Virus record (IMG/VR): IMGVR_UViG_3300042691_051382
Direction: 5' to 3' (one strand)
Source of the DNA: a virus
DNA length: 64,000 bases
Under the pieces are notes generated by a model. The model was not told where the DNA came from and ran no database searches. It worked only from the letters and a program-made list of their open reading frames with translations. Both the position numbers and the translations under genes were made by a program. Position 1 is the first letter of the stretch. Every line of letters starts with the position of its first letter. Below are positions 57,293 to 64,000 of the stretch, piece after piece.

Positions 57293-57499
57293 TTATGGTT
57301 CGGGTGCTGCAACCGGTTGAACCGGAATGAAACTTCGGCGCGCCAAAACCGAGTCGATTGCCATGTTGGTCGTGTTGGTTGCTTCGAGCGTTGCCACACG
57401 CTGCACCAACACTCCCACTTGATACGTTAAAAACGCCAACACAATCAAAACGAACGTGTATGCAACGATGCTAAAATTTTGAAAACGATGCTGGTTCAT
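57293..57499 (-). CDS. small membrane protein
   Basis: AGGAG SD, TM segment, CTATATACT upstream. Confidence 0.55.
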   Translation of the reverse strand: MNQHRFQNFSIVAYTFVLIVLAFLTYQVGVLVQRVATLEATNTTNMAIDSVLARRSFIPVQPVAAPEP

Positions 57500-57639
57500 T
57501 GTTGCTCCTAGAGTGGTTGCAAGTATATAGCGAAACACCCGCATGCTGGCGGGTGTTTGAGTACCTTAAGGTTGTTTGAGGTTGATCGGCGAAGCGGTTG
57601 ATATCATCCGAGACATGCATATTTAGCGGTTGTGTTGCC

Positions 57640-57990
57640 GAGAAAAATTCAAGAAAAACAATTTTTGCAGTTTTTTTTTGCACGGTGCATATACCCTAAC
57701 AAAAATCTTAAATAGTTTGGTAACGTAAAAATTTTTGTGGCGATTTTTTTTGCGGGGGGCTAGTGCAACAAGGGGGGGGTGGCTTACGTATGGGGGGGGT
57801 GGATCAAAAATCTTAAATTTGTTTGGGTGTGTTTGTTTTTTTGTGGCGATTTTTTTGTGGGGGTTTTGCGGGGTTTTTGCGGGGTTTTTGCGGGGTTTTT
57901 GGGCGGTCGGAAAATTTGCGAAATTTGGTGGCTATAGGGGTATAGGGCTTTGGGGGGTCGGCTTATATATGGGGGGGGTAGCCAATTTGC
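57640..57990. repeat. non-coding G/T-tract region with 11-bp repeats (GGGGTTTTTGC)
   Basis: G-runs at 57859, 57870, 57881, 57892; duplicated TTTTGTGGCGATTTTTTT and GGCTTA.[AG]TATGGGGGGGGT. Confidence 0.85.
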
Positions 57991-58101
57991 CGATTTGACT
58001 TGTCGAGTCGAGTCGGCTTGTGACCGGGACTTGCGGGTGGCCAGACCCGAGTCAACCCCGAGCCTAACCCTACCCGAACAAAAAAATTTCGTGCTTGTCA
58101 C

Positions 58102-58130
58102 TCGACACGCCTACGGTCGAAGCCTATACT
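58102..58130 (+). promoter_or_regulatory. cassette promoter 1
   Basis: TCGACA-cgc-CTACGGT-N7-TATACT. Confidence 0.85.
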
Positions 58131-58206
58131 CTCTTGTCGGAAGCGGGTCGCGTGACTCGCACCGACCGAAACCTGCTCCCTATGGGGAGCCTTTGGAGAC
58201 TGTGTC

Positions 58207-58608
58207 ATGGCTAAGAATGAAATCCGTCAAGCATACAACAAGATTTGTGCCGAGGCGAAATCCGCAGGCAAGTGGTTCGTGAGCCTGTACGCAATCGAGT
58301 CGTATTACGGTGGCCCCGAAGAAGGTGGGTGGTGGGGCAACGACTGCGTGCTTGTGGAATACCAAGAAGTGCGCACCGAGGAGGAGGCAGATCTTCTCGC
58401 AGAGAAGATCACGCAACTCGCCGCACAGATGACCGAGGATGCCAAACGGCAACACGGCGAGCGATGCTTGCGTGAAAGCGAGTGGTGCGCCGCTCGTGGT
58501 CTCGACGACGACTTCCTACCCGAAGTCGATGGTCACGACGAATACCGAGTCGTGATCGAGGAAACTCCTGGTTCGCAAGAACATCGAGGATCCCGTCACT
58601 ATGAATGA
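58207..58608 (+). CDS. cassette 1 hypothetical protein
   Basis: 133 aa; V.LY.....YGGPEEGGWW motif; GGAG SD. Confidence 0.85.
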   Translation: MAKNEIRQAYNKICAEAKSAGKWFVSLYAIESYYGGPEEGGWWGNDCVLVEYQEVRTEEEADLLAEKITQLAAQMTEDAKRQHGERCLRESEWCAARGLDDDFLPEVDGHDEYRVVIEETPGSQEHRGSRHYE

Positions 58609-58724
58609 TCGTTTCACCGCAGCGATGCGGTGATGCCGCCAGACCCGATGGTACTGTATGGTGTGCGATTTGTGCCAACCCCGAGCCTAACCCTACCCGA
58701 ACGCAAATATTCTGTTGCGAATAG

Positions 58725-58753
58725 TAGACGCGCCTACGGTCGAAGGCTATACT
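58725..58753 (+). promoter_or_regulatory. cassette promoter 2
   Basis: TAGACG-cgc-CTACGGT-N7-TATACT. Confidence 0.85.
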
Positions 58754-58829
58754 CTGGTGTCTGGAGTGAGTCGCGTGACTCGCACCGACCGAAACCTGCT
58801 CCCTATGGGGAGCCTTTGGAGACTGTGTC

Positions 58830-59153
58830 ATGGGCAAGATCGGTAAAGTCGCAACCAAGATTAGACGTGATGAAAATGGTAACGTTTTTGTTCGTTACCA
58901 CAACACCGACGTGGTGACTATCACGGACCATTCGGTGATCTTGAACCACGGCGGCTGGATCACCCGCACCACTCTTCGACGCATGAATCAAGCAAGCGCT
59001 CAGTGGAACCTCGGGTATCGGGTGTTCCAACGCAAGGGTCAACTCATGCTTCACTGGGTTGGCTGTAACTTCAAGTGGAACGGAGCCACCAGCGGCGACA
59101 GCCGCACGTTCACCATGAACTGGTGCGAGAACCCACTCGATCAAGTCAAGTAA
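58830..59153 (+). CDS. cassette 2 hypothetical protein
   Basis: 107 aa; V.YH.T.VV...LN.GGW.T.TT..RMN. Confidence 0.85.
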   Translation: MGKIGKVATKIRRDENGNVFVRYHNTDVVTITDHSVILNHGGWITRTTLRRMNQASAQWNLGYRVFQRKGQLMLHWVGCNFKWNGATSGDSRTFTMNWCENPLDQVK

Positions 59154-59165
59154 AAACCTCCAGTA

Positions 59166-59196
59166 GCCCCAGGGAGACCGATTCCCTGGGGCGTTT
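59166..59196 (+). terminator. cassette terminator type A
   Basis: GCCCCAGGGA-gaccgat-TCCCTGGGGC-gttt; identical copy at about 60588-60618. Confidence 0.75.
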
Positions 59197-59283
59197 CGTT
59201 GGTGCGCCAGACCCGATGTGGTACGGTGATGTGCGATTTGTACCCCGACCGAACCCCAAACACAAATATTCTGCTCGAAACAG

Positions 59284-59312
59284 TTGACACCGCTACGGTC
59301 GAAGGCTATACT
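59284..59312 (+). promoter_or_regulatory. cassette promoter 3
   Basis: TTGACA-ccg-CTACGGT-N7-TATACT. Confidence 0.9.
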
Positions 59313-59356
59313 TGTGTGTGGAGCGAATGGGTCGCTCCCGTACTGGAGACTGAATC

Positions 59357-59773
59357 ATGCTTAGCGTATCCGAAGCCGTTGAAACTGTCGCTCGCATCCA
59401 AGCACTTCACCTTGCGGATCGTGCCGCACTCGCAAGTGCCGCCAAGCCCCGCAACTCGGAGATTCCCCCAGGCGAGTATCCCGTAGACTTCACGGTGCGA
59501 ATCGTTGGTATGGTCAAGAAGGGCGAAGACTACGTTTCTACGCAACCGCAAGCCATCAACCCGTGGGCGTTGTGTGGCTACCTTCTCAGCAAACTCAACG
59601 CCACCACCGCCGCAAGCGTGGCGCAGTACGTCGCCGAAGCGTACAAGAGCGGCGAAGACTTTGACGCATATAAGAAATATGCGGAAGCGGCTATGGAAAC
59701 TATCGCCGAAGCCACCACCACCACCAAGAGCGGGCGAACCGACTGTGTGGTGTCGGTGACCGTAATCAAATAA
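59357..59773 (+). CDS. cassette 3 hypothetical protein
   Basis: 138 aa; G.Y.VDF.V...G.V..GEDY. Confidence 0.85.
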   Translation: MLSVSEAVETVARIQALHLADRAALASAAKPRNSEIPPGEYPVDFTVRIVGMVKKGEDYVSTQPQAINPWALCGYLLSKLNATTAASVAQYVAEAYKSGEDFDAYKKYAEAAMETIAEATTTTKSGRTDCVVSVTVIK

Positions 59774-59784
59774 ACCTCCAGTAG

Positions 59785-59814
59785 CCCAGCGGGACCGCCA
59801 ACCGCTGGGTGTTT
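59785..59814 (+). terminator. cassette terminator type B
   Basis: CCCAGCGG-gaccgccaa-CCGCTGGG-(t/c)gttt; copies at about 62067 and 63507. Confidence 0.75.
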
Positions 59815-59921
59815 CGTTGGTGCGCCAGACCCGAGTCAGCCCCAGGCTGTGCGATTTGTGCCAACCCCGAGCCGAACAAACACCTAATTTCAACAATTTG
59901 CATCCGAATTGTTGAAACAAG

Positions 59922-59950
59922 TCGACGCGCCTACGGTCGAAGCCTATGCT
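59922..59950 (+). promoter_or_regulatory. cassette promoter 4
   Basis: TCGACG-cgc-CTACGGT-N7-TATGCT. Confidence 0.8.
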
Positions 59951-60005
59951 TCCCTGTCGGAAGCGGGTCGCGTGACTCGCGCCGACCGAAACCAGGAGTC
60001 AAGTC

Positions 60006-60578
60006 ATGGCAAACAAGCGTATCGTTTCAATCCCCGTCTCGGTGTATCATATCGTCGGTCTCGCGGTTGCGGGTCAAGATGGACGATACTGGTATCACTC
60101 GGAGGGTGCTACCCTCCAAACGGCTGCCGAAACCCTAAAGGTTTCGGCGGAACATTTCGCGAGTGTACTCGCGATCACCTCACCTCAAGTCCCCGTCGCA
60201 CGCAACGGTAGGATTACGGTAGGGTTTTTGAGCAAGGGATTGCGCTGGGCCATGATGCCGTCGGTGCATAGCGCACTGGATCACTATCTCGCCACGGGCG
60301 AGATTCGTGGTCCCAAGACGGGACCGTTCGCTCGCGCATTGCTCGGCGACGAGCAAGCGATTGTATTGGATGTTTGGATGGCACGTGCATTCGGCGTGCC
60401 GCAAGGGTGGTTCAAACTCGTGGACTGCCGCGAGAAATGCGAGGCGATGATTCGCCAAGCGGCAGCGATTCTCGGATGGACCCCCGCCCAAGTTCAGGCG
60501 GCGGTTTGGACCGAGATGACCCGCAAGCGAGGCGGCGGAAGCCTCCAGTTGATGCGGTGGGTCGATATGTACAAATAA
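60006..60578 (+). CDS. cassette 4 protein, HhH-glycosylase-like fold (tentative)
   Basis: G..WY, LA.TSP...V..N, GPK...F...L.GD...V.D.WM.RA, TPA.VQA..W. Confidence 0.7.
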   Translation: MANKRIVSIPVSVYHIVGLAVAGQDGRYWYHSEGATLQTAAETLKVSAEHFASVLAITSPQVPVARNGRITVGFLSKGLRWAMMPSVHSALDHYLATGEIRGPKTGPFARALLGDEQAIVLDVWMARAFGVPQGWFKLVDCREKCEAMIRQAAAILGWTPAQVQAAVWTEMTRKRGGGSLQLMRWVDMYK

Positions 60579-60704
60579 CCTCCAGTAGCCCCAGGGAGAC
60601 CGATTCCCTGGGGCGTTTCGCTAGCCGCCGGACCCGATGGGATACAATGTTGTGCGATTTGTACCCCAACCGAACCCCGAACAAACTTTTTTGCTAGCAT
60701 TTTC

Positions 60705-60733
60705 TTGACACCGCTACGGTCGCAGGCTATACT
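60705..60733 (+). promoter_or_regulatory. cassette promoter 5
   Basis: TTGACA-ccg-CTACGGT-N7-TATACT. Confidence 0.9.
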
Positions 60734-60776
60734 TGTGTGCGGGCGCGATGGTGCGACTCGCTTCTGGAGAATCGGC

Positions 60777-60941
60777 ATGGAAGAAACCAAAAAATGTAAG
60801 TGTGGCGAAGCGGCTGTGTGGGTTCCCAAGGAACCCGCTGCGGGATTGCCCGCAGGGTGGGTATGCGCCAAGGAATCGACAATCGCTCCGTTTGTCGATG
60901 AAGGGTGCGATTACTTTGTACCCGAATCAAACCCCAACTAG
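60777..60941 (+). CDS. cassette 5 small Cys-containing protein (54 aa)
   Basis: ATG 60777 after CTGGAG; MEETKKCKCG...WVC...GCDYFVPESNPN. Confidence 0.7.
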   Translation: MEETKKCKCGEAAVWVPKEPAAGLPAGWVCAKESTIAPFVDEGCDYFVPESNPN

Positions 60942-61047
60942 GAAAAAAGCCCCGAAAGGGGCACGCCGCCAGACCCGAGACGTATCGGTCGCTGCACCCT
61001 AACAAACACCTAATCTCTACGATTTTCAAGCGAATCGTTGAAATGAG

Positions 61048-61076
61048 TCGACGCGCCTACGGTTGCGGGATATACT
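61048..61076 (+). promoter_or_regulatory. cassette promoter 6
   Basis: TCGACG-cgc-CTACGGT-N7-TATACT. Confidence 0.85.
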
Positions 61077-61123
61077 GTTCATGCCGGAAGCGAATGGTTC
61101 GCATCTGGCATCTGGAGAATGTT

Positions 61124-61489
61124 ATGCAAACTGAAACGGCTGAAACAATCAAGACAATCTTTGAACCGGCTTTGGGCAGGGAGATTCCCGTCGCACGTCG
61201 ATGGGAGGGTGTACCCAAGTGGATCACCACCCACTTCATCGTTGTTGATGGAGCCGGGAACTGGGGTCGGGGTCGAACCCTGACCGATGCCAAGGGTGTA
61301 GTGTTGAAGGCGGCAGGCGCAAAGTCGCACGCCCACTTCAACCGGGTGGGCATGTTGGCGTACATGATCCGGCAGGACGAACGCTCGCCCGAACCGTGGG
61401 TCAACGGTTACGGAATGATCTGCAACTATGCGGATCAGTTCAACGGTGATTACAGCTTGATCGAAGAGATCAAGTGCAAGCGCAAATAA
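61124..61489 (+). CDS. cassette 6 hypothetical protein (121 aa)
   Basis: ATG 61124 after CTGGAG; WGRG.T..DA. Confidence 0.8.
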   Translation: MQTETAETIKTIFEPALGREIPVARRWEGVPKWITTHFIVVDGAGNWGRGRTLTDAKGVVLKAAGAKSHAHFNRVGMLAYMIRQDERSPEPWVNGYGMICNYADQFNGDYSLIEEIKCKRK

Positions 61490-61622
61490 CAATCCGGGTT
61501 TGAACCTCCCCACGGGAACATTCCCGTGGGGATTTGTTTGCGCCAGCCAGACCCGAGCCAGCCAGCGGCTGTGCGATTTGTACCCCAACAGAACCCGAAC
61601 ACAAATATTCTGCTCGAAACAG

Positions 61623-61651
61623 TTGACGGTGCTACGGTCGGAGAGTATACT
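61623..61651 (+). promoter_or_regulatory. cassette promoter 7
   Basis: TTGACG-gtg-CTACGGT-N7-TATACT. Confidence 0.85.
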
Positions 61652-61695
61652 TCAGTGTCGAGCGAATGGGTCGCTCGAACAAACTGGAGACTGCG

Positions 61696-62055
61696 ATGAA
61701 ATATTCTGAAACAATCCGTGTGGATGTTCGTCGGTTCTTTGAAGACTTTGAGTGTGAAGTCGAGTATGATATGCACAACAACTCGGCACAAGATCGTGCC
61801 GAAGGGTTAGGTGCTACCACGCTCGATGAGGGTAGTGTCACCATCACGAATCTCAACGAACTCTGGCAAGAGTTCGTAGACGACGCAGTTCGTGAAGACT
61901 ACGCAGTCGAGGGTACGGGAATCAAAGCGGTGGTGACGCTTCCCGAAGAGACGACCAACACCAAGAGATATCCCGTCGAACAAGTCCACTTCGAGGACTT
62001 TGAAGGATACTTGATCGAGTCGCTGATCAATCGACTCAGCGACAACAAGTGGTGA
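61696..62055 (+). CDS. cassette 7 acidic hypothetical protein (119 aa)
   Basis: ATG 61696 after CTGGAG. Confidence 0.8.
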   Translation: MKYSETIRVDVRRFFEDFECEVEYDMHNNSAQDRAEGLGATTLDEGSVTITNLNELWQEFVDDAVREDYAVEGTGIKAVVTLPEETTNTKRYPVEQVHFEDFEGYLIESLINRLSDNKW

Positions 62056-62183
62056 ACCTCCAGTAGCCCAGCGGGACCGCCAACCGCTGGGCGTTTCGTT
62101 GGTGCGCCAGACCCGAGTCAGCCCCAGGCTGTGCGATTTGTACCCCGACCGAACCCCAAACAAACTTTTTCGCTAGGATTTTC

Positions 62184-62212
62184 TTGACACCGCTACGGTT
62201 GCGGGCTATGCT
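62184..62212 (+). promoter_or_regulatory. cassette promoter 8
   Basis: TTGACA-ccg-CTACGGT-N7-TATGCT. Confidence 0.85.
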
Positions 62213-62260
62213 TCCCTGCGGGGAGCGAATGGTTCGCCTCCTGCATCTGGAGACCGAATC

Positions 62261-62518
62261 ATGTGCAGTTGCGAAGACCGTCCGTGCTGTGGCTGTGGTT
62301 ACGATGACTTCACGGTTCCCGAAAGCGGGTACGATGCCGAAGCGTACTACGACGATGAGGAAGCCGAGGACATGGGCGACGGCGAACCGATGGGTTCGCA
62401 CGACATGAGCGACGATGCCGATGCGCTCGCAAGCGCAGGGTTCGGCATGGACGAGGACTACAATCACTTCGACTCAATCGAAGACCAATGGCTCGACGGG
62501 TCGTACGAAGGTGAATGA
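62261..62518 (+). CDS. cassette 8 very acidic protein with N-terminal Cys cluster
   Basis: MCSCEDRPCCGCG...DDADALASAGFG.DEDY. Confidence 0.8.
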   Translation: MCSCEDRPCCGCGYDDFTVPESGYDAEAYYDDEEAEDMGDGEPMGSHDMSDDADALASAGFGMDEDYNHFDSIEDQWLDGSYEGE

Positions 62519-62631
62519 CCCAGCCCCGCAAGGGGCATGCGCCAGACCCGAGCCACACACGCCGCCAGACCCGAGTCAACCGCAACCCGATCCCGAACAG
62601 AACCCAAACACAAATATTCTGTTGCGAATAG

Positions 62632-62660
62632 TAGACACGCCTACGGTCGAAGGCTATACT
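62632..62660 (+). promoter_or_regulatory. cassette promoter 9
   Basis: TAGACA-cgc-CTACGGT-N7-TATACT. Confidence 0.85.
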
Positions 62661-62733
62661 TCCCCTGTCGGGAGCGAGTGGTTCGCAACCGACCGAACCC
62701 GCTCCCGCACGGGAGCAACTGGAGCCTAGTATC

Positions 62734-63495
62734 ATGCAACTTCTCGATGACGGTGATTCGAATACTAAACTGAGCAAGAATACCGCTCGCACGTGGGGGC
62801 TGTCGCTTGCCCCAGCCGATTCAAGCGGCTACAACGTTTGCCCGTGGAGCACCGATGGCTGTCGCACGGCGTGCGTAGCCTACGCTGGTCTCTCGATCGT
62901 ATGGGCGAGCATTCATGCGGCACGGGTGCGAAAGACCCGTTGGTTCTTCCAAGAACGTCAAGCGTTCGTGTCTCGCTTGAACCGTGAAATCACCAACAAG
63001 AATCGTTGGTGTGCTCGCAACGATACCATCGGATACATGCGCTTGAATGTGTATTCGGATATTGGTTGGGAGAACATGGTTGACCTGAATCGGTCGAACA
63101 TCCGCTTCTACGATTACACCAAGTCACTCAAGCGAGCATGGGCGCAACTGTGCGATTCGTGCTACCGTCTGTGCTACTCGTACAATGAATCAAGCAACCC
63201 CGCCGAAGTGCGCAAGTTTCTCGAAGCGGGTGGAACCATTGCGATGGTTCGAGCCGACATCAAGTACGTCAACAAGAACAACAAGGGACCGATCCCCGCA
63301 ACCGTCACCATCGACGGGGTCGAGTTTCCGACGTTCGATGCGGACGAACAAGACAATCGATTCCTTGACCCGAAGGGTGCGGTTGGAATCCTCCGACTCA
63401 AGGGCGACAAAGAGATGCGCAAGCATGCAATCGACACCCACTTCGCCCAAGGAACCCCACACCACACTCACCTCACCGTGAGTGCCAAGAAGTAA
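62734..63495 (+). CDS. cassette 9 GP88-family-like protein
   Basis: N.KL.K, L.LAPA..SG.NVCP....GC...C, RLN..SDI.W, FYDYTK, D..D.RFLD..G....L..KG. Confidence 0.75.
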   Translation: MQLLDDGDSNTKLSKNTARTWGLSLAPADSSGYNVCPWSTDGCRTACVAYAGLSIVWASIHAARVRKTRWFFQERQAFVSRLNREITNKNRWCARNDTIGYMRLNVYSDIGWENMVDLNRSNIRFYDYTKSLKRAWAQLCDSCYRLCYSYNESSNPAEVRKFLEAGGTIAMVRADIKYVNKNNKGPIPATVTIDGVEFPTFDADEQDNRFLDPKGAVGILRLKGDKEMRKHAIDTHFAQGTPHHTHLTVSAKK

Positions 63496-63614
63496 ACCTC
63501 CAGTAGCCCAGCGGGACCGCCAACCGCTGGGCGTTTCGCTCGCCGCCAGACCCGAGCCAGCCGCTGGTTGTGCGATTTGTGCAACCCAGACGCAACATTT
63601 TTGGTTGCGAAAAG

Positions 63615-63643
63615 TTGACACCGCTACGGTCGCGGGATATACT
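63615..63643 (+). promoter_or_regulatory. cassette promoter 10
   Basis: TTGACA-ccg-CTACGGT-N7-TATACT. Confidence 0.9.
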
Positions 63644-63680
63644 GTGGTGCAAGCAAGCCGCTTGCATCTGGAGAATCACA

Positions 63681-63902
63681 ATGGTCGAGTCGATCAACTG
63701 GGAGTTTGAAACAAGCCGCGCTCGTCGTATGACGGTCGAGAGTCTTCGGTGGAGCATCCAAGACGCTCGCGAGGCGTTGGACTGTGCCGAGGAGATGGAG
63801 CGTGCGGGACTTGCCAACAACGCAGGCAAGTATGCGGATCAAATCCATGTGTACAACGCCGAACTCAACCGCCGATTGCAAGTCGGCAAGCGCAACAAAT
63901 AA
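63681..63902 (+). CDS. cassette 10 hypothetical protein (73 aa)
   Basis: ATG 63681 after CTGGAG; SL...I.DA.EA...GKY.D..H....EL.RR. Confidence 0.8.
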   Translation: MVESINWEFETSRARRMTVESLRWSIQDAREALDCAEEMERAGLANNAGKYADQIHVYNAELNRRLQVGKRNK

Positions 63903-64000
63903 GTTTTTTGCCCTTCATAGCCTCGCTTATCTTTCGACGACGTTCTTCCGAAAGTTTTTTTCCTTTGTTAGCCTCGCTCAACTTTCGACGATGTTCTTCC
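63901..64000 (+). repeat. start of a different ~51-bp tandem repeat (2 copies, truncated)
   Basis: AAGTTTTTT..C.TT..TAGCCTCGCT.A.CTTTCGACGA.GTTCTTCC twice. Confidence 0.75.

Follow-up and report, generated by a model that had tools for sequence, protein, structure and literature searches.

Mosaic PeSL-like spacers in an array of single-gene early cassettes of an uncultured T4-like myovirus

PeSLs, integrons and the cassette array

Promoter-early stem-loops (PeSLs) are elements of the hyperplastic regions of T4-type phages, in which strong sigma-70-like promoters are combined with stem-loops (PMC2839356, PMC4122927). They have been described in RB49/phi1 (Arbiol et al., 2010, PMC2839356) and also in PST/T4 and nt-1/KVP40 (Comeau et al., 2014, PMC4122927). 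Crossovers at several internal positions of PeSLs lead to chimeric PeSLs and mini-circles (PMC2839356, PMC4122927), and measurements on RB49 cover the mini-circles as well as promoter strength and termination (PMC2839356). Local gene conversion driven by the homing endonucleases of T4 (seg and mob genes) is a second exchange route (PMC4122927).

The window analyzed here, a stretch of 64,000 nt, stems from an uncultured T4-like myovirus (record IMGVR_UViG_3300042691_051382) and contains T4-like genes for a baseplate wedge protein (phrog_219, 5e-159), tail tube, tail-tube cap, and ribonucleotide reductase. Ten unrelated small ORFs (58207-63902, + strand) are separated by spacers of 183-233 nt. 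In a contig of a sister form (L001), genes similar to gp44 and gp45 adjoin the array and seven further CTACGGT-type promoters follow downstream. The full array comprises at least 15 single-gene early cassettes, and the window shows the first ten. Most of the unit proteins are of unknown function, and they are mutually unrelated.

Each spacer begins with a hairpin, followed by the word A1 (CCAGACCCGA), usually a 14-nt linker and the word A2 (GTGCGATTTGT), and a C-rich block. Next come an AT-rich pre -35 block and a predicted TTGACA-N17-TATACT promoter that includes CTACGGT, and then a leader hairpin and GGAG-ATG. Of the 12 sigma-70 consensus positions, the promoter of each unit matches 9-11. 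Each small gene is preceded by a GC-rich hairpin, which lies upstream of the -35 hexamer at a distance of 75-130 nt; a strict terminator pattern, including a T run, was found in two of nine hairpins. The array holds 11 copies of A1 (at most one mismatch) versus 1.7 expected in the whole window, seven exact copies of A2, and ten copies of the promoter core CTACGGT versus 0 expected. The features are as follows.

58041..63902 (+): ten units of the single-gene early cassette array, which runs past the window end
58041..58206 (+): spacer 1; A1 58041-58050, without A2; two-hairpin leader
58102-58130: spacer 1 promoter, TCGACA-N17-TATACT
58207..58608 (+): unit 1 ORF, 133 aa; phrog_24642, function unknown
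58609..58829 (+): spacer 2; hairpin E 58615-58632, A1 58639, A2 58663; pre -35 type 2/9, leader type 1/2
58830..59153 (+): unit 2 ORF, 107 aa; Kyano_Gp96-like
59154..59356 (+): spacer 3; terminator A 59167-59191, A1 59207, A2 59231; pre -35 type 3/7, promoter 59284-59312
59357..59773 (+): unit 3 ORF, 138 aa; without family match
59774..60005 (+): spacer 4; terminator B 59785-59809, A1 59825, A2 59849; pre -35 type 4/6 with 8-bp palindrome, leader type 1/2/4
60006..60578 (+): unit 4 ORF, 190 aa; DUF7178
60579..60776 (+): spacer 5; terminator A 60589-60613, A1 variant CCGGACCCGA at 60628, A2 60652; pre -35 type 5/8
60777..60941 (+): unit 5 ORF, 54 aa; 3' end with degenerate A2 copy and C-rich block
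60942..61123 (+): spacer 6; hairpin C 60949-60962, A1 60969, without A2; pre -35 type 4/6
61124..61489 (+): unit 6 ORF, 121 aa; without family match
61490..61695 (+): spacer 7; terminator D 61508-61531, A1 61547, A2 61571; pre -35 type 3/7
61696..62055 (+): unit 7 ORF, 119 aa; without family match
62056..62260 (+): spacer 8; terminator B 62067-62091, A1 62107, A2 62131; pre -35 type 5/8, leader type 6/8
62261..62518 (+): unit 8 ORF, 85 aa; acidic
62519..62733 (+): spacer 9; hairpin C 62523-62536, tandem A1 pair 62542 and 62565, without A2; pre -35 type 2/9, hybrid leader
62734..63495 (+): unit 9 ORF, 253 aa; Pfam GP88 (PF17338)
63496..63680 (+): spacer 10; terminator B 63507-63531, A1 63546, A2 63570; promoter 63615-63643
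63681..63902 (+): unit 10 ORF, 73 aa
63865..64000 (-): free-standing homing-endonuclease gene (GIY-YIG/NUMOD3), 3' part; interrupts the array

The likeness to PeSLs extends from the T4-like myovirus genome to the build of the elements (near-consensus sigma-70 promoter, AT-rich upstream block, GC-rich stem-loop, 3' Shine-Dalgarno sequence and ATG), their crowding among small genes of unknown function, the indels and replacements flanked by elements between near-identical phages, and the multiple internal crossover positions that result in chimeric elements. The spacers differ from PeSLs in their length of 183-233 nt and in the position of the hairpin, which lies within or next to the promoter in PeSLs but well upstream of it here. 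The invariant words between hairpin and promoter (A1, the fixed 14-nt linker, and A2) and the invariant CTACGGT within the promoter spacer are absent from the PeSL descriptions compared here (PMC2839356, PMC4122927). Furthermore, the array is GC-rich (~56%) compared with the structural part of the genome (~36-48%).

Integron cassette arrays, with their attC sites and IntI, are a second point of comparison; integron cassettes are promoterless and transcribed from one common promoter. Both kinds of array line up single-gene units of unrelated function, have a recurring, partly palindromic word at every junction, and differ in cassette content and order between close relatives. In contrast to integrons, however, each phage unit has its own promoter and hairpin, the exchange edges are not limited to one site, and no tyrosine recombinase or attI-like site was seen among the called genes (L001, L008).

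Reassortment of blocks among the spacers

The preliminary description of this DNA had proposed that the spacer blocks are combined differently from cassette to cassette, and all block groupings that it listed were recovered. Terminator type A precedes units 3 and 5, type B units 4, 8, and 10, and type C units 6 and 9. The pre -35 blocks pair differently: within a 26-nt block, identity is 92% for spacers 2 and 9 (58704-58729 and 62611-62636), 96% for 3 and 7 (59261-59288 and 61600-61627), 88% for 5 and 8 (60682-60713 and 62161-62192), and 77% for 4 and 6. The leaders group in yet another way. Those of spacers 1 and 2 share an exact run of 63 nt ending at the ATG, which is also the longest exact repeat between any spacers, and leader 4 is akin to them (59-66% identity). 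Leaders 3 and 7 are 74% and leaders 6 and 8 73% identical, and leader 9, assigned to the latter group, combines a first hairpin of the 6/8 type with a second one of the 1/2 type. The nearest relative of a spacer switches block by block, as in spacer 8, whose affinities are to spacer 4 in terminator and linker (96-100%), spacer 3 in the C block (100%), and spacer 5 in the pre -35 block (88%).

The incongruence among modules that this pattern implies was assessed by several methods. The block identity matrices were mostly uncorrelated (Mantel r -0.35 to +0.28 for 12 of 15 block pairs), 45% of the pairs of informative sites were incompatible, and PHI gave p=0.0005. Parsimony segmentation with exhaustive topologies reduced the tree length from 150 steps to 133 with one breakpoint and 122 with four, each lower than in all 300 site shuffles (p<=0.003). 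Since the blocks are just 14-75 nt long, per-block trees are poorly resolved; the basis of the tests is site compatibility and shuffling. The block matrices, PHI, and the segmentation all contradict one duplication history for the spacers.

Natural variants and exchange points

Recombination among the spacers is directly visible in natural variants of the phage. The sequences used for comparison are without exception metagenome contigs assembled from short reads. The 10-unit form was found again at 99.7-100% identity in contigs from ~10 other samples and at least two pipelines, and a form with eight units, lacking units 4 and 5, occurred in three assemblies from different samples. L001 and L002 diverge from the window by 0-0.7% in the flanking genes and genes 1 and 6-10, but lack the following segment.

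59966..60996 (+): segment of the window form missing from L001/L002; end of spacer 4 to start of spacer 6, with units 4 and 5 and spacer 5 in between; limits inside the shared 4/6-type block

The indel of units 4 and 5 is flanked by the 4+6 pre -35 module, and the L001/L002 join lies inside the 4/6-type block. The single spacer between units 3 and 6 in L001/L002 is pieced together from at least five tracts, each with its best match in a different window spacer. One crossover between window spacers 4 and 6 does not yield this hybrid, which requires additional events or unsampled parents. The other differences between the window and L001/L002 are short spacer patches that resemble other spacers; divergence reaches 3-8% in spacers 1, 3, 6, and 10, with no such patches in spacers 2, 7, and 9.

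Crossovers had been suggested at A1, A2, and CTACGGT. Tract edges between the window and the L001/L002 form do abut all three, at A1 (59834/59835, 63555/63557), A2 (59241/59244, 63566/63570), and CTACGGT (59290/59293, 61063/61067), but further breakpoints lie at the CGTTTCG that follows the hairpin, the CCCRAAC that precedes the AT-rich block, and the -10 hexamer, as well as within the leader. The strongest breakpoint found within the window by parsimony segmentation is the border between linker and A2, not A1. An exchange point can be mapped only to the invariant run between informative sites, and its coincidence with conserved words is therefore partly methodological. Part of the reassortment stems from insertion, deletion, and movement of whole cassettes, in addition to crossovers within spacers.

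As with the T4 seg and mob genes, a free-standing GIY-YIG/NUMOD3 gene lies in the array on the opposite strand and is full-length, shortened, or absent depending on the variant (called as 253, 236, 178, or 62 aa depending on the assembly). Its endonuclease could raise exchange near its own site, but the gene does not account for the patchwork in all ten spacers.

Homologous cassettes occur reordered in more distant relatives (u9'-u10'-u6'-x-u12'; u8'-f17-u9'; u7'-?-u6'-u8'; u2'-x-x-u4'-u7'; u10'..u12'..u3'..u9'), and one contig (L020) carries the extra cassette f17 between two spacers with a common pre -35 block.

Origin of the patchwork

The spacers are best explained, with a probability of roughly 0.8, as PeSL-type composite regulatory elements that act as portable homology and thereby shuffle early cassettes. 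An unlikely alternative is site-directed cassette exchange, in which a dedicated recombination protein would recognize A1 or A1-N14-A2 as a site comparable to integron attC. A1 is indeed the sole spacer word common to all related phages found and is retained among phages with shared proteins of ~40-60% identity, all other spacer words having changed; its 78 non-redundant copies all lie on the transcribed strand, shortly 3' of the hairpin. The A1-A2 distance is constant with variable linker sequence (26 of 28 copies have a 14-nt linker, and over 15 distinct linkers occur). Retention of A1 and this fixed spacing are not accounted for by homology-driven exchange alone. In L008, a more distant phage, A1 frequently forms one arm of a perfect 12-bp inverted repeat with a loop of 17-19 nt that is seen in both orientations, and tandem A1 copies occur in spacer 9, L016, L017, and L020. 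Junctions exactly at A1 were found in the comparison of spacer 4 with the L001 3-to-6 spacer, in a linker swap in spacer 10, and in a hybrid of spacers 3 and 2 in L039, where just 13 nt are shared at the join while the two spacers are identical over 20 nt at another place. However, three such junctions are too few for statistics, and that of L039 is one contig end. None of the genes called in L001 or L008 has a recorded integrase, resolvase, or transposase family. The edges at A2, CTACGGT, the -10 hexamer, and the leader, the strongest breakpoint away from A1, and the promoter in every cassette also argue against a dedicated site.

It is considerably less probable that the junction block (A1, linker, A2, and C-rich run) is a mobile or regulatory element, REP-/MITE-like or an operator, that invaded older spacers, so that the apparent reassortment would largely reflect independent insertions. 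Its full, partial, or tandem state by spacer (spacers 1, 6, and 9 without A2, spacer 9 with two A1), the palindromic 42-bp form in L008 with loops in both orientations, and the degenerate copy of A2 and C block within the end of ORF 5 would fit such an element. Yet terminators, pre -35 and -10 regions, and leaders outside the block also reassort, strand and place relative to hairpin and promoter are constant in the clade of the window, L001, and L004, and a transposase or RAYT-like gene was not seen among the called genes (L001, L008).

Convergence, with block types as functional variants such as regulator binding sites that arose independently under selection, is highly improbable. From phage to phage, a given downstream gene does tend to keep its pre -35 and leader blocks (79% identity for the former and 74% for the latter, versus 58% background), which suggests a gene-specific regulatory value, but the common tracts of 25-63 nt are exactly identical, loops and linkers without obvious constraint included, and tract-like patches separate genomes that are otherwise 0-0.7% divergent, a pattern impossible by convergence. 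Short-read chimeras at repeated spacers can practically be dismissed as the source of the mosaics and of the 8- and 10-unit forms: many contigs of the phage begin or end in spacers or a G/T-rich gap and the L039 hybrid is terminal in its contig, but both forms recur across separate samples, the exact repeats between spacers (<=63 nt) are shorter than the reads and than k=141 (ENA contigs), and the converted patches sit within otherwise identical sequence.

Under the PeSL-type explanation, the GC-rich hairpin of each spacer would end the upstream transcript and the sigma-70-type promoter would drive its own single early gene, as judged from the sequence motifs. Similar sequence of ~200 nt recurs in direct orientation every 0.4-1 kb and thereby lets the spacers act as portable homology, probably through the phage's own T4-type recombination system. 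Recombination between spacer copies or co-infecting relatives would copy short tracts (gene conversion), recombination between two spacers would delete, insert, or move the genes in between, and exchange points would resolve within short invariant words; we infer the direction of each event. The outcome would be patchwork spacers and phage variants differing by whole cassettes, and the array is a clear new example of the published PeSL shuffling mechanism of T4-type phages.

Structure of the cassette array

Judged by its gene content, the source of the window is an uncultured T4-like myovirus. Large ORFs upstream of the array match baseplate wedge (phrog_219, 5e-159), tail tube, tail-tube cap and ribonucleotide reductase families, and gp44-like (gp44-lid) and gp45-like genes lie just upstream of the array in L001, a metagenome contig that provides a second assembly; these matches assign the array to a T4-type phage genome. 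The window also carries four tRNA genes. From 58041 to the window end, ten small ORFs (units 1 to 10) are arranged in a row on the plus strand, each preceded by the spacer of the same number (S1 to S10):

58207-58608, plus strand, unit 1
58830-59153, plus strand, unit 2
59357-59773, plus strand, unit 3
60006-60578, plus strand, unit 4
60777-60941, plus strand, unit 5
61124-61489, plus strand, unit 6
61696-62055, plus strand, unit 7
62261-62518, plus strand, unit 8
62734-63495, plus strand, unit 9
63681-63902, plus strand, unit 10

The ten proteins are mutually unrelated, and their only matches are families of unknown function (phrog_24642, Kyano_Gp96, DUF7178, GP88). The G + C content is about 52-58% in the cassette region (58000-64000; L001 6000-20762), with about 56% over the ten units, versus 36-48% in most of the structural part (1-56000). 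L001 spans the change at 57.5-58.0 kb, so that a junction introduced by a single assembler is ruled out. A gene-free, G/T-rich stretch (57545-57990) with G6-G8 runs and GGGGTTTTTGC repeats separates the array from the divergent structural genes; several contigs begin or stop within it, and with 23 differences (5.2%) it is the most variable non-coding part between the 8- and 10-unit forms of the array described below. A divergent gene followed by a G-rich gap and an array was also seen in two other contigs, L008 and L028.

The array runs on past the window end, as L001 contains seven further promoters with the word CTACGGT, which precede an ArdC-like gene, a 173-aa sigma-70-family gene and others. 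The sigma-70-family gene (regions 2 and 4; 173-180 aa) is located inside the array in both L001 (14358-14879, beyond the window end) and L008 (11756-12298) and sits behind the same promoter type in both lineages, the invariant promoter-spacer word being lineage-specific (CTACGGT in the window lineage, GGTTGCGGGTAG in L008). A free-standing GIY-YIG/NUMOD3 homing-endonuclease gene lies inside the array after unit 10 (63865-64000, minus strand in the window; L001:11132-11893); its called length is 253, 236, 178 or 62 aa depending on the assembly, and it is absent at the corresponding place in the related contigs L004 and L025. Its product may make double-strand breaks and thereby promote exchange nearby.

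The spacer before each ORF has a length of 183-233 nt and a constant order of elements. The stop codon (often followed by ACCTCCAGTAG) is succeeded by a GC-rich hairpin and the anchor word A1 (CCAGACCCGA), to which a 14-nt linker and a second anchor word, A2 (GTGCGATTTGT), are added in seven of the ten spacers; a C-rich run, the AT-rich pre -35 block, the promoter, and a leader that opens with a hairpin and leads to GGAG and the ATG complete the spacer. The promoter consists of a -35 hexamer, a 17-nt spacer containing CTACGGT and a -10 hexamer (TATACT or TATGCT). A1 occurs 11 times in the array versus 1.7 expected, and the promoter core 10 times versus 0 expected. In a sigma-70 consensus scan, a purely sequence-based test, nine of the ten promoters match at 9-11 of 12 positions and have a spacer of 17 nt, as compared to 3.4 hits expected; the tenth, TCGACG-N17-TATGCT, falls outside the scan set. 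GC-rich hairpins of types A to E, predicted to be terminators or attenuators, are present in 9 of the 10 spacers, only two of them with the T run of a canonical intrinsic terminator. No Rfam family was found in 57300-64000, and inspection by eye revealed no pairing of A1 with A2 as a hairpin.

Two further features of the spacer borders were recorded. ACCTCCAGTAG directly follows five stop codons (59156, 59774, 60578, 62056, 63496); most leaders carry CTGGAG at their ribosome-binding site, of which CTCCAG, the core of ACCTCCAGTAG, is the reverse complement. In the final codons of ORF 5 (60915-60937) there is a degenerate copy of the A2 end and the C-rich block, and the next spacer has no A2 of its own.

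Mosaic composition of the spacers

The preliminary description had grouped the spacers differently for each module and concluded that no single duplication history accounts for them. Its groupings were recovered: hairpin A precedes units 3 and 5, B units 4, 8 and 10, and C units 6 and 9, and the pre -35 blocks pair as 2+9 (92%), 3+7 (96%), 5+8 (88%) and 4+6 (77%). Leaders 1 and 2 have an exact 63 nt in common up to the ATG, leader 4 resembles them (59-66% identity), and 3+7 and 6+8 form further groups, with leader 9 being a hybrid of the 6/8 and 1/2 types. Mixing extends into the terminator block, where hairpins A and B are each found with both of the tails that follow CGTTTCG, TTGGTGCG and CTNGCCG.

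The nearest neighbor of a given spacer differs block by block, and the identity matrices of the blocks are mostly uncorrelated, with positive correlations only for C block and leader, C block and promoter, and promoter and leader. Among the six spacers sharing the full layout, 45% of the informative-site pairs are incompatible, and compatibility is higher between neighboring sites than between distant ones (PHI p=0.0005). For parsimony segmentation, all 105 topologies were scored per informative site and the best segmentation was sought. One breakpoint, located at the linker/A2 border, reduced the tree length from 150 to 133 steps, and four breakpoints, the additional ones at CCCRAAC, the -10 hexamer and the leader start, reduced it to 122, each value lying under those of all 300 site shuffles. 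Block incongruence, PHI and segmentation therefore reject a single duplication history, in agreement with the preliminary description.

Exchange among close and distant relatives

Independent assemblies were retrieved by exact look-ups of the cassette proteins. The 10-unit arrangement of the window recurs at 99.7-100% identity in contigs of about ten samples (for example L005, 100% over 6065 nt, L031, L032, L034, L038 and L040), and an 8-unit form was found in L001 (JGI 3300032288), L002 (ENA ERZ28594320) and one third contig. Divergence between the two forms is only 0-0.7% in genes 1 and 6-10 and in the flanking genes. The 8-unit form lacks units 4 and 5 (absent segment ~59966-60996), and the join falls inside the pre -35 block common to spacers 4 and 6. 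The spacer remaining between units 3 and 6 in L001 matches S4 of the window through A1 and then consists of patches of other spacers, namely, in order, S3 (linker and A2), S5 (C block), S6 (pre -35), S4/S8 (-10 region), S9 (first leader hairpin) and S6 again. The other differences between the forms are tracts rather than scattered changes, and S2, S7 and S9 are identical:

59244-59290, tract in S3
61067-61094, tract in S6
63557-63566, tract in the S10 linker
58178-58194, tract in the second hairpin of leader 1

The tract edges abut A1, A2 and CTACGGT, which supports crossovers at these words as previously interpreted. In the second hairpin of leader 1 (58172-58200 versus L001:6560-6598) both arms are altered (GCTCCC/GGGAGC versus GCTCGCCC/GGGCGAGC) and the stem is kept and longer; the new 15-mer, CGTATGGGCGAGCAT, is also found within gene 9 (62898). 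On a larger scale, 58844-59770 (genes 2 and 3 with spacer 3) is 4-5% divergent as a block while neighboring genes differ by 0-0.7%, a pattern suggesting replacement from a more distant relative.

A further junction was seen in contig L039 (1270-1409), which agrees with the window without a difference as far as the A1 of S3, including unit 2 and hairpin A, and continues with the 66 nt that follow A1 in S2, thereby joining 59154-59216 to 58649-58714 with only 13 nt in common. Such a join would be expected if unit 2 were duplicated in tandem or formed a circle; as it is a single contig end, it may also be an artifact. Exact look-ups of proteins 1, 2, 4, 7 and 9 found no variants deleted between the same-type pairs 3/7, 5/8 or 2/9.

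The mosaics could in principle be assembly chimeras, and contig breaks within spacers are indeed frequent and limit phasing. These breaks do not create the described patterns. Exact repeats between spacers do not exceed 63 nt, less than the length of typical reads and less than the k=141 used for the ENA contigs, and each form recurs across several samples and pipelines.

A metagenome scan for A1-N(12-17)-A2 yielded 14 loci from related phages. In these loci, and in L004 and L008, homologues (marked by primes) of the same cassettes stand in different orders:

Cassette order in related contigs
L004, L025: u9'-u10'-u6'-x-u12'
L020: u7'-u8'-f17-u9'-u10'
L021: u7'-?-u6'-u8'-?-u10'
L023: u2'-x-x-u4'-u7'
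L018: u9'-?-u13'-u14'-u15'
L008: u10'..u12'..u3'..u9'..u15'

Both spacers flanking the extra cassette f17 in L020 carry the same pre -35 block. Among non-redundant units with differing upstream genes, the pre -35 block, promoter and leader track the downstream gene (79%, 81% and 74% identity versus backgrounds of 58%, 78% and 58%); any tie between terminator and upstream gene in the different phages is weak (65% versus 59%, n=6). The INPHARED phage collection gave no nucleotide match to the array in near or distant mode, and IMG/VR contained no A1-A2 match and, by pattern search, no close relative of proteins 9 or 4; the palindromic form of A1 described below matched one IMG/VR contig only, the L008 phage itself.

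Relation to PeSLs and a candidate junction site

Promoter-early stem-loops (PeSLs) are composite promoter and stem-loop elements in hyperplastic regions of T4-type phages (Arbiol et al., 2010, PMC2839356; Comeau et al., 2014, PMC4122927). Crossovers between them generate chimeric PeSLs and excised mini-circles (Arbiol et al., 2010), and they bracket the indels between T4 and PST and between KVP40 and nt-1 (Comeau et al., 2014). Of six defining features tested, four were found in the array. It resides in a T4-type genome; its promoters are, at the sequence level, sigma-70-like with an AT-rich upstream stretch; its spacers lie between small ORFs of mostly unknown function in a region whose gene content differs among relatives, and end in a Shine-Dalgarno sequence and start codon; and indels between close phages are bracketed by the elements (units 4-5; f17 in L020). 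As to chimeric elements and mini-circles, chimeric spacers were observed, and the L039 join comes from one contig end. The pre -35 block was also considered as the PeSL stem-loop; only that of S4 is strongly palindromic (z=-5.2) and 5 of 10 are no better than shuffles, and this idea was therefore dropped. The published PeSL mechanism is the simplest reading of these data, under which the array is a well-resolved PeSL-type system. The spacers would, like PeSLs, serve as linker homology for a very active recombination system of the phage.

This mechanism leaves the conservation of A1 and its fixed distance to A2 unexplained. A1 is kept in all related phages found; its 78 non-redundant copies lie without exception on the transcribed strand, a short distance downstream of the hairpin. 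It is retained even in L008, whose shared proteins are about 40-60% identical and which lacks A2 and CTACGGT and has its own promoter-spacer word instead. Many of the A1 copies there form an arm of a perfect 12-bp inverted repeat (GCCAGACCCGAT ... ATCGGGTCTGGC), whose loops of 17-19 nt occur in both orientations across copies, as reverse complements:

L008 1722-1763, A1 inverted repeat
L008 2486-2526, A1 inverted repeat
L008 3849-3890, A1 inverted repeat
L008 7858-7900, A1 inverted repeat

In the window lineage (window 58639-63580, L001, L004), the A1-A2 linker measures 14 nt in 26 of 28 non-redundant copies despite more than 15 linker sequences, a sample partly retrieved with the N12-17 pattern, of which all 13 copies from the window, L001 and L004 were retrieved without it; between A2 and the -35 hexamer the spacing ranges over 32-75 nt. 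Fixed spacing with free linker sequence suggests recognition by a protein. A1-N14-A2 might accordingly be a dedicated, protein-recognized junction site directing where early-gene cassettes are cut and joined, with the 12-bp A1 inverted repeat and its flipping loop as the equivalent in L008-type phages. We consider this unlikely, at a probability of about 10%, because none of the called genes in 20.7 kb of L001 and 16.8 kb of L008 has a recombinase family on record and exchange edges occur away from A1 too.

Integron cassettes are promoterless and expressed from a common promoter, with the tyrosine recombinase IntI and attI adjacent. The array differs in having a promoter-like site before each unit and no recombinase family on record in the same stretches. 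If A1-N14-A2 did act as a dedicated junction site, it would represent site-directed cassette exchange in a freshwater T4-like clade, loosely integron-like and layered on PeSL homology, and would answer the question left open by Arbiol et al. (2010) of a specific helper protein for PeSL exchange. It is the one element here that could prove new, and a concrete candidate for deciding whether homology alone drives the shuffling or a specific protein assists it.

Under the PeSL-type reading, modular shuffling, described in cultured T4-like phages of enterobacteria and Vibrio, also takes place in an uncultured environmental lineage. The length and rich structure of the spacers allow exchange points to be mapped one block at a time. 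Within metagenomes, three time scales of shuffling are visible: converted patches that distinguish genomes differing by less than 1%, the indel of two cassettes, and cassettes reordered in more distant relatives. For annotation, the spacer layout flags early genes and hyperplastic regions in this phage clade.
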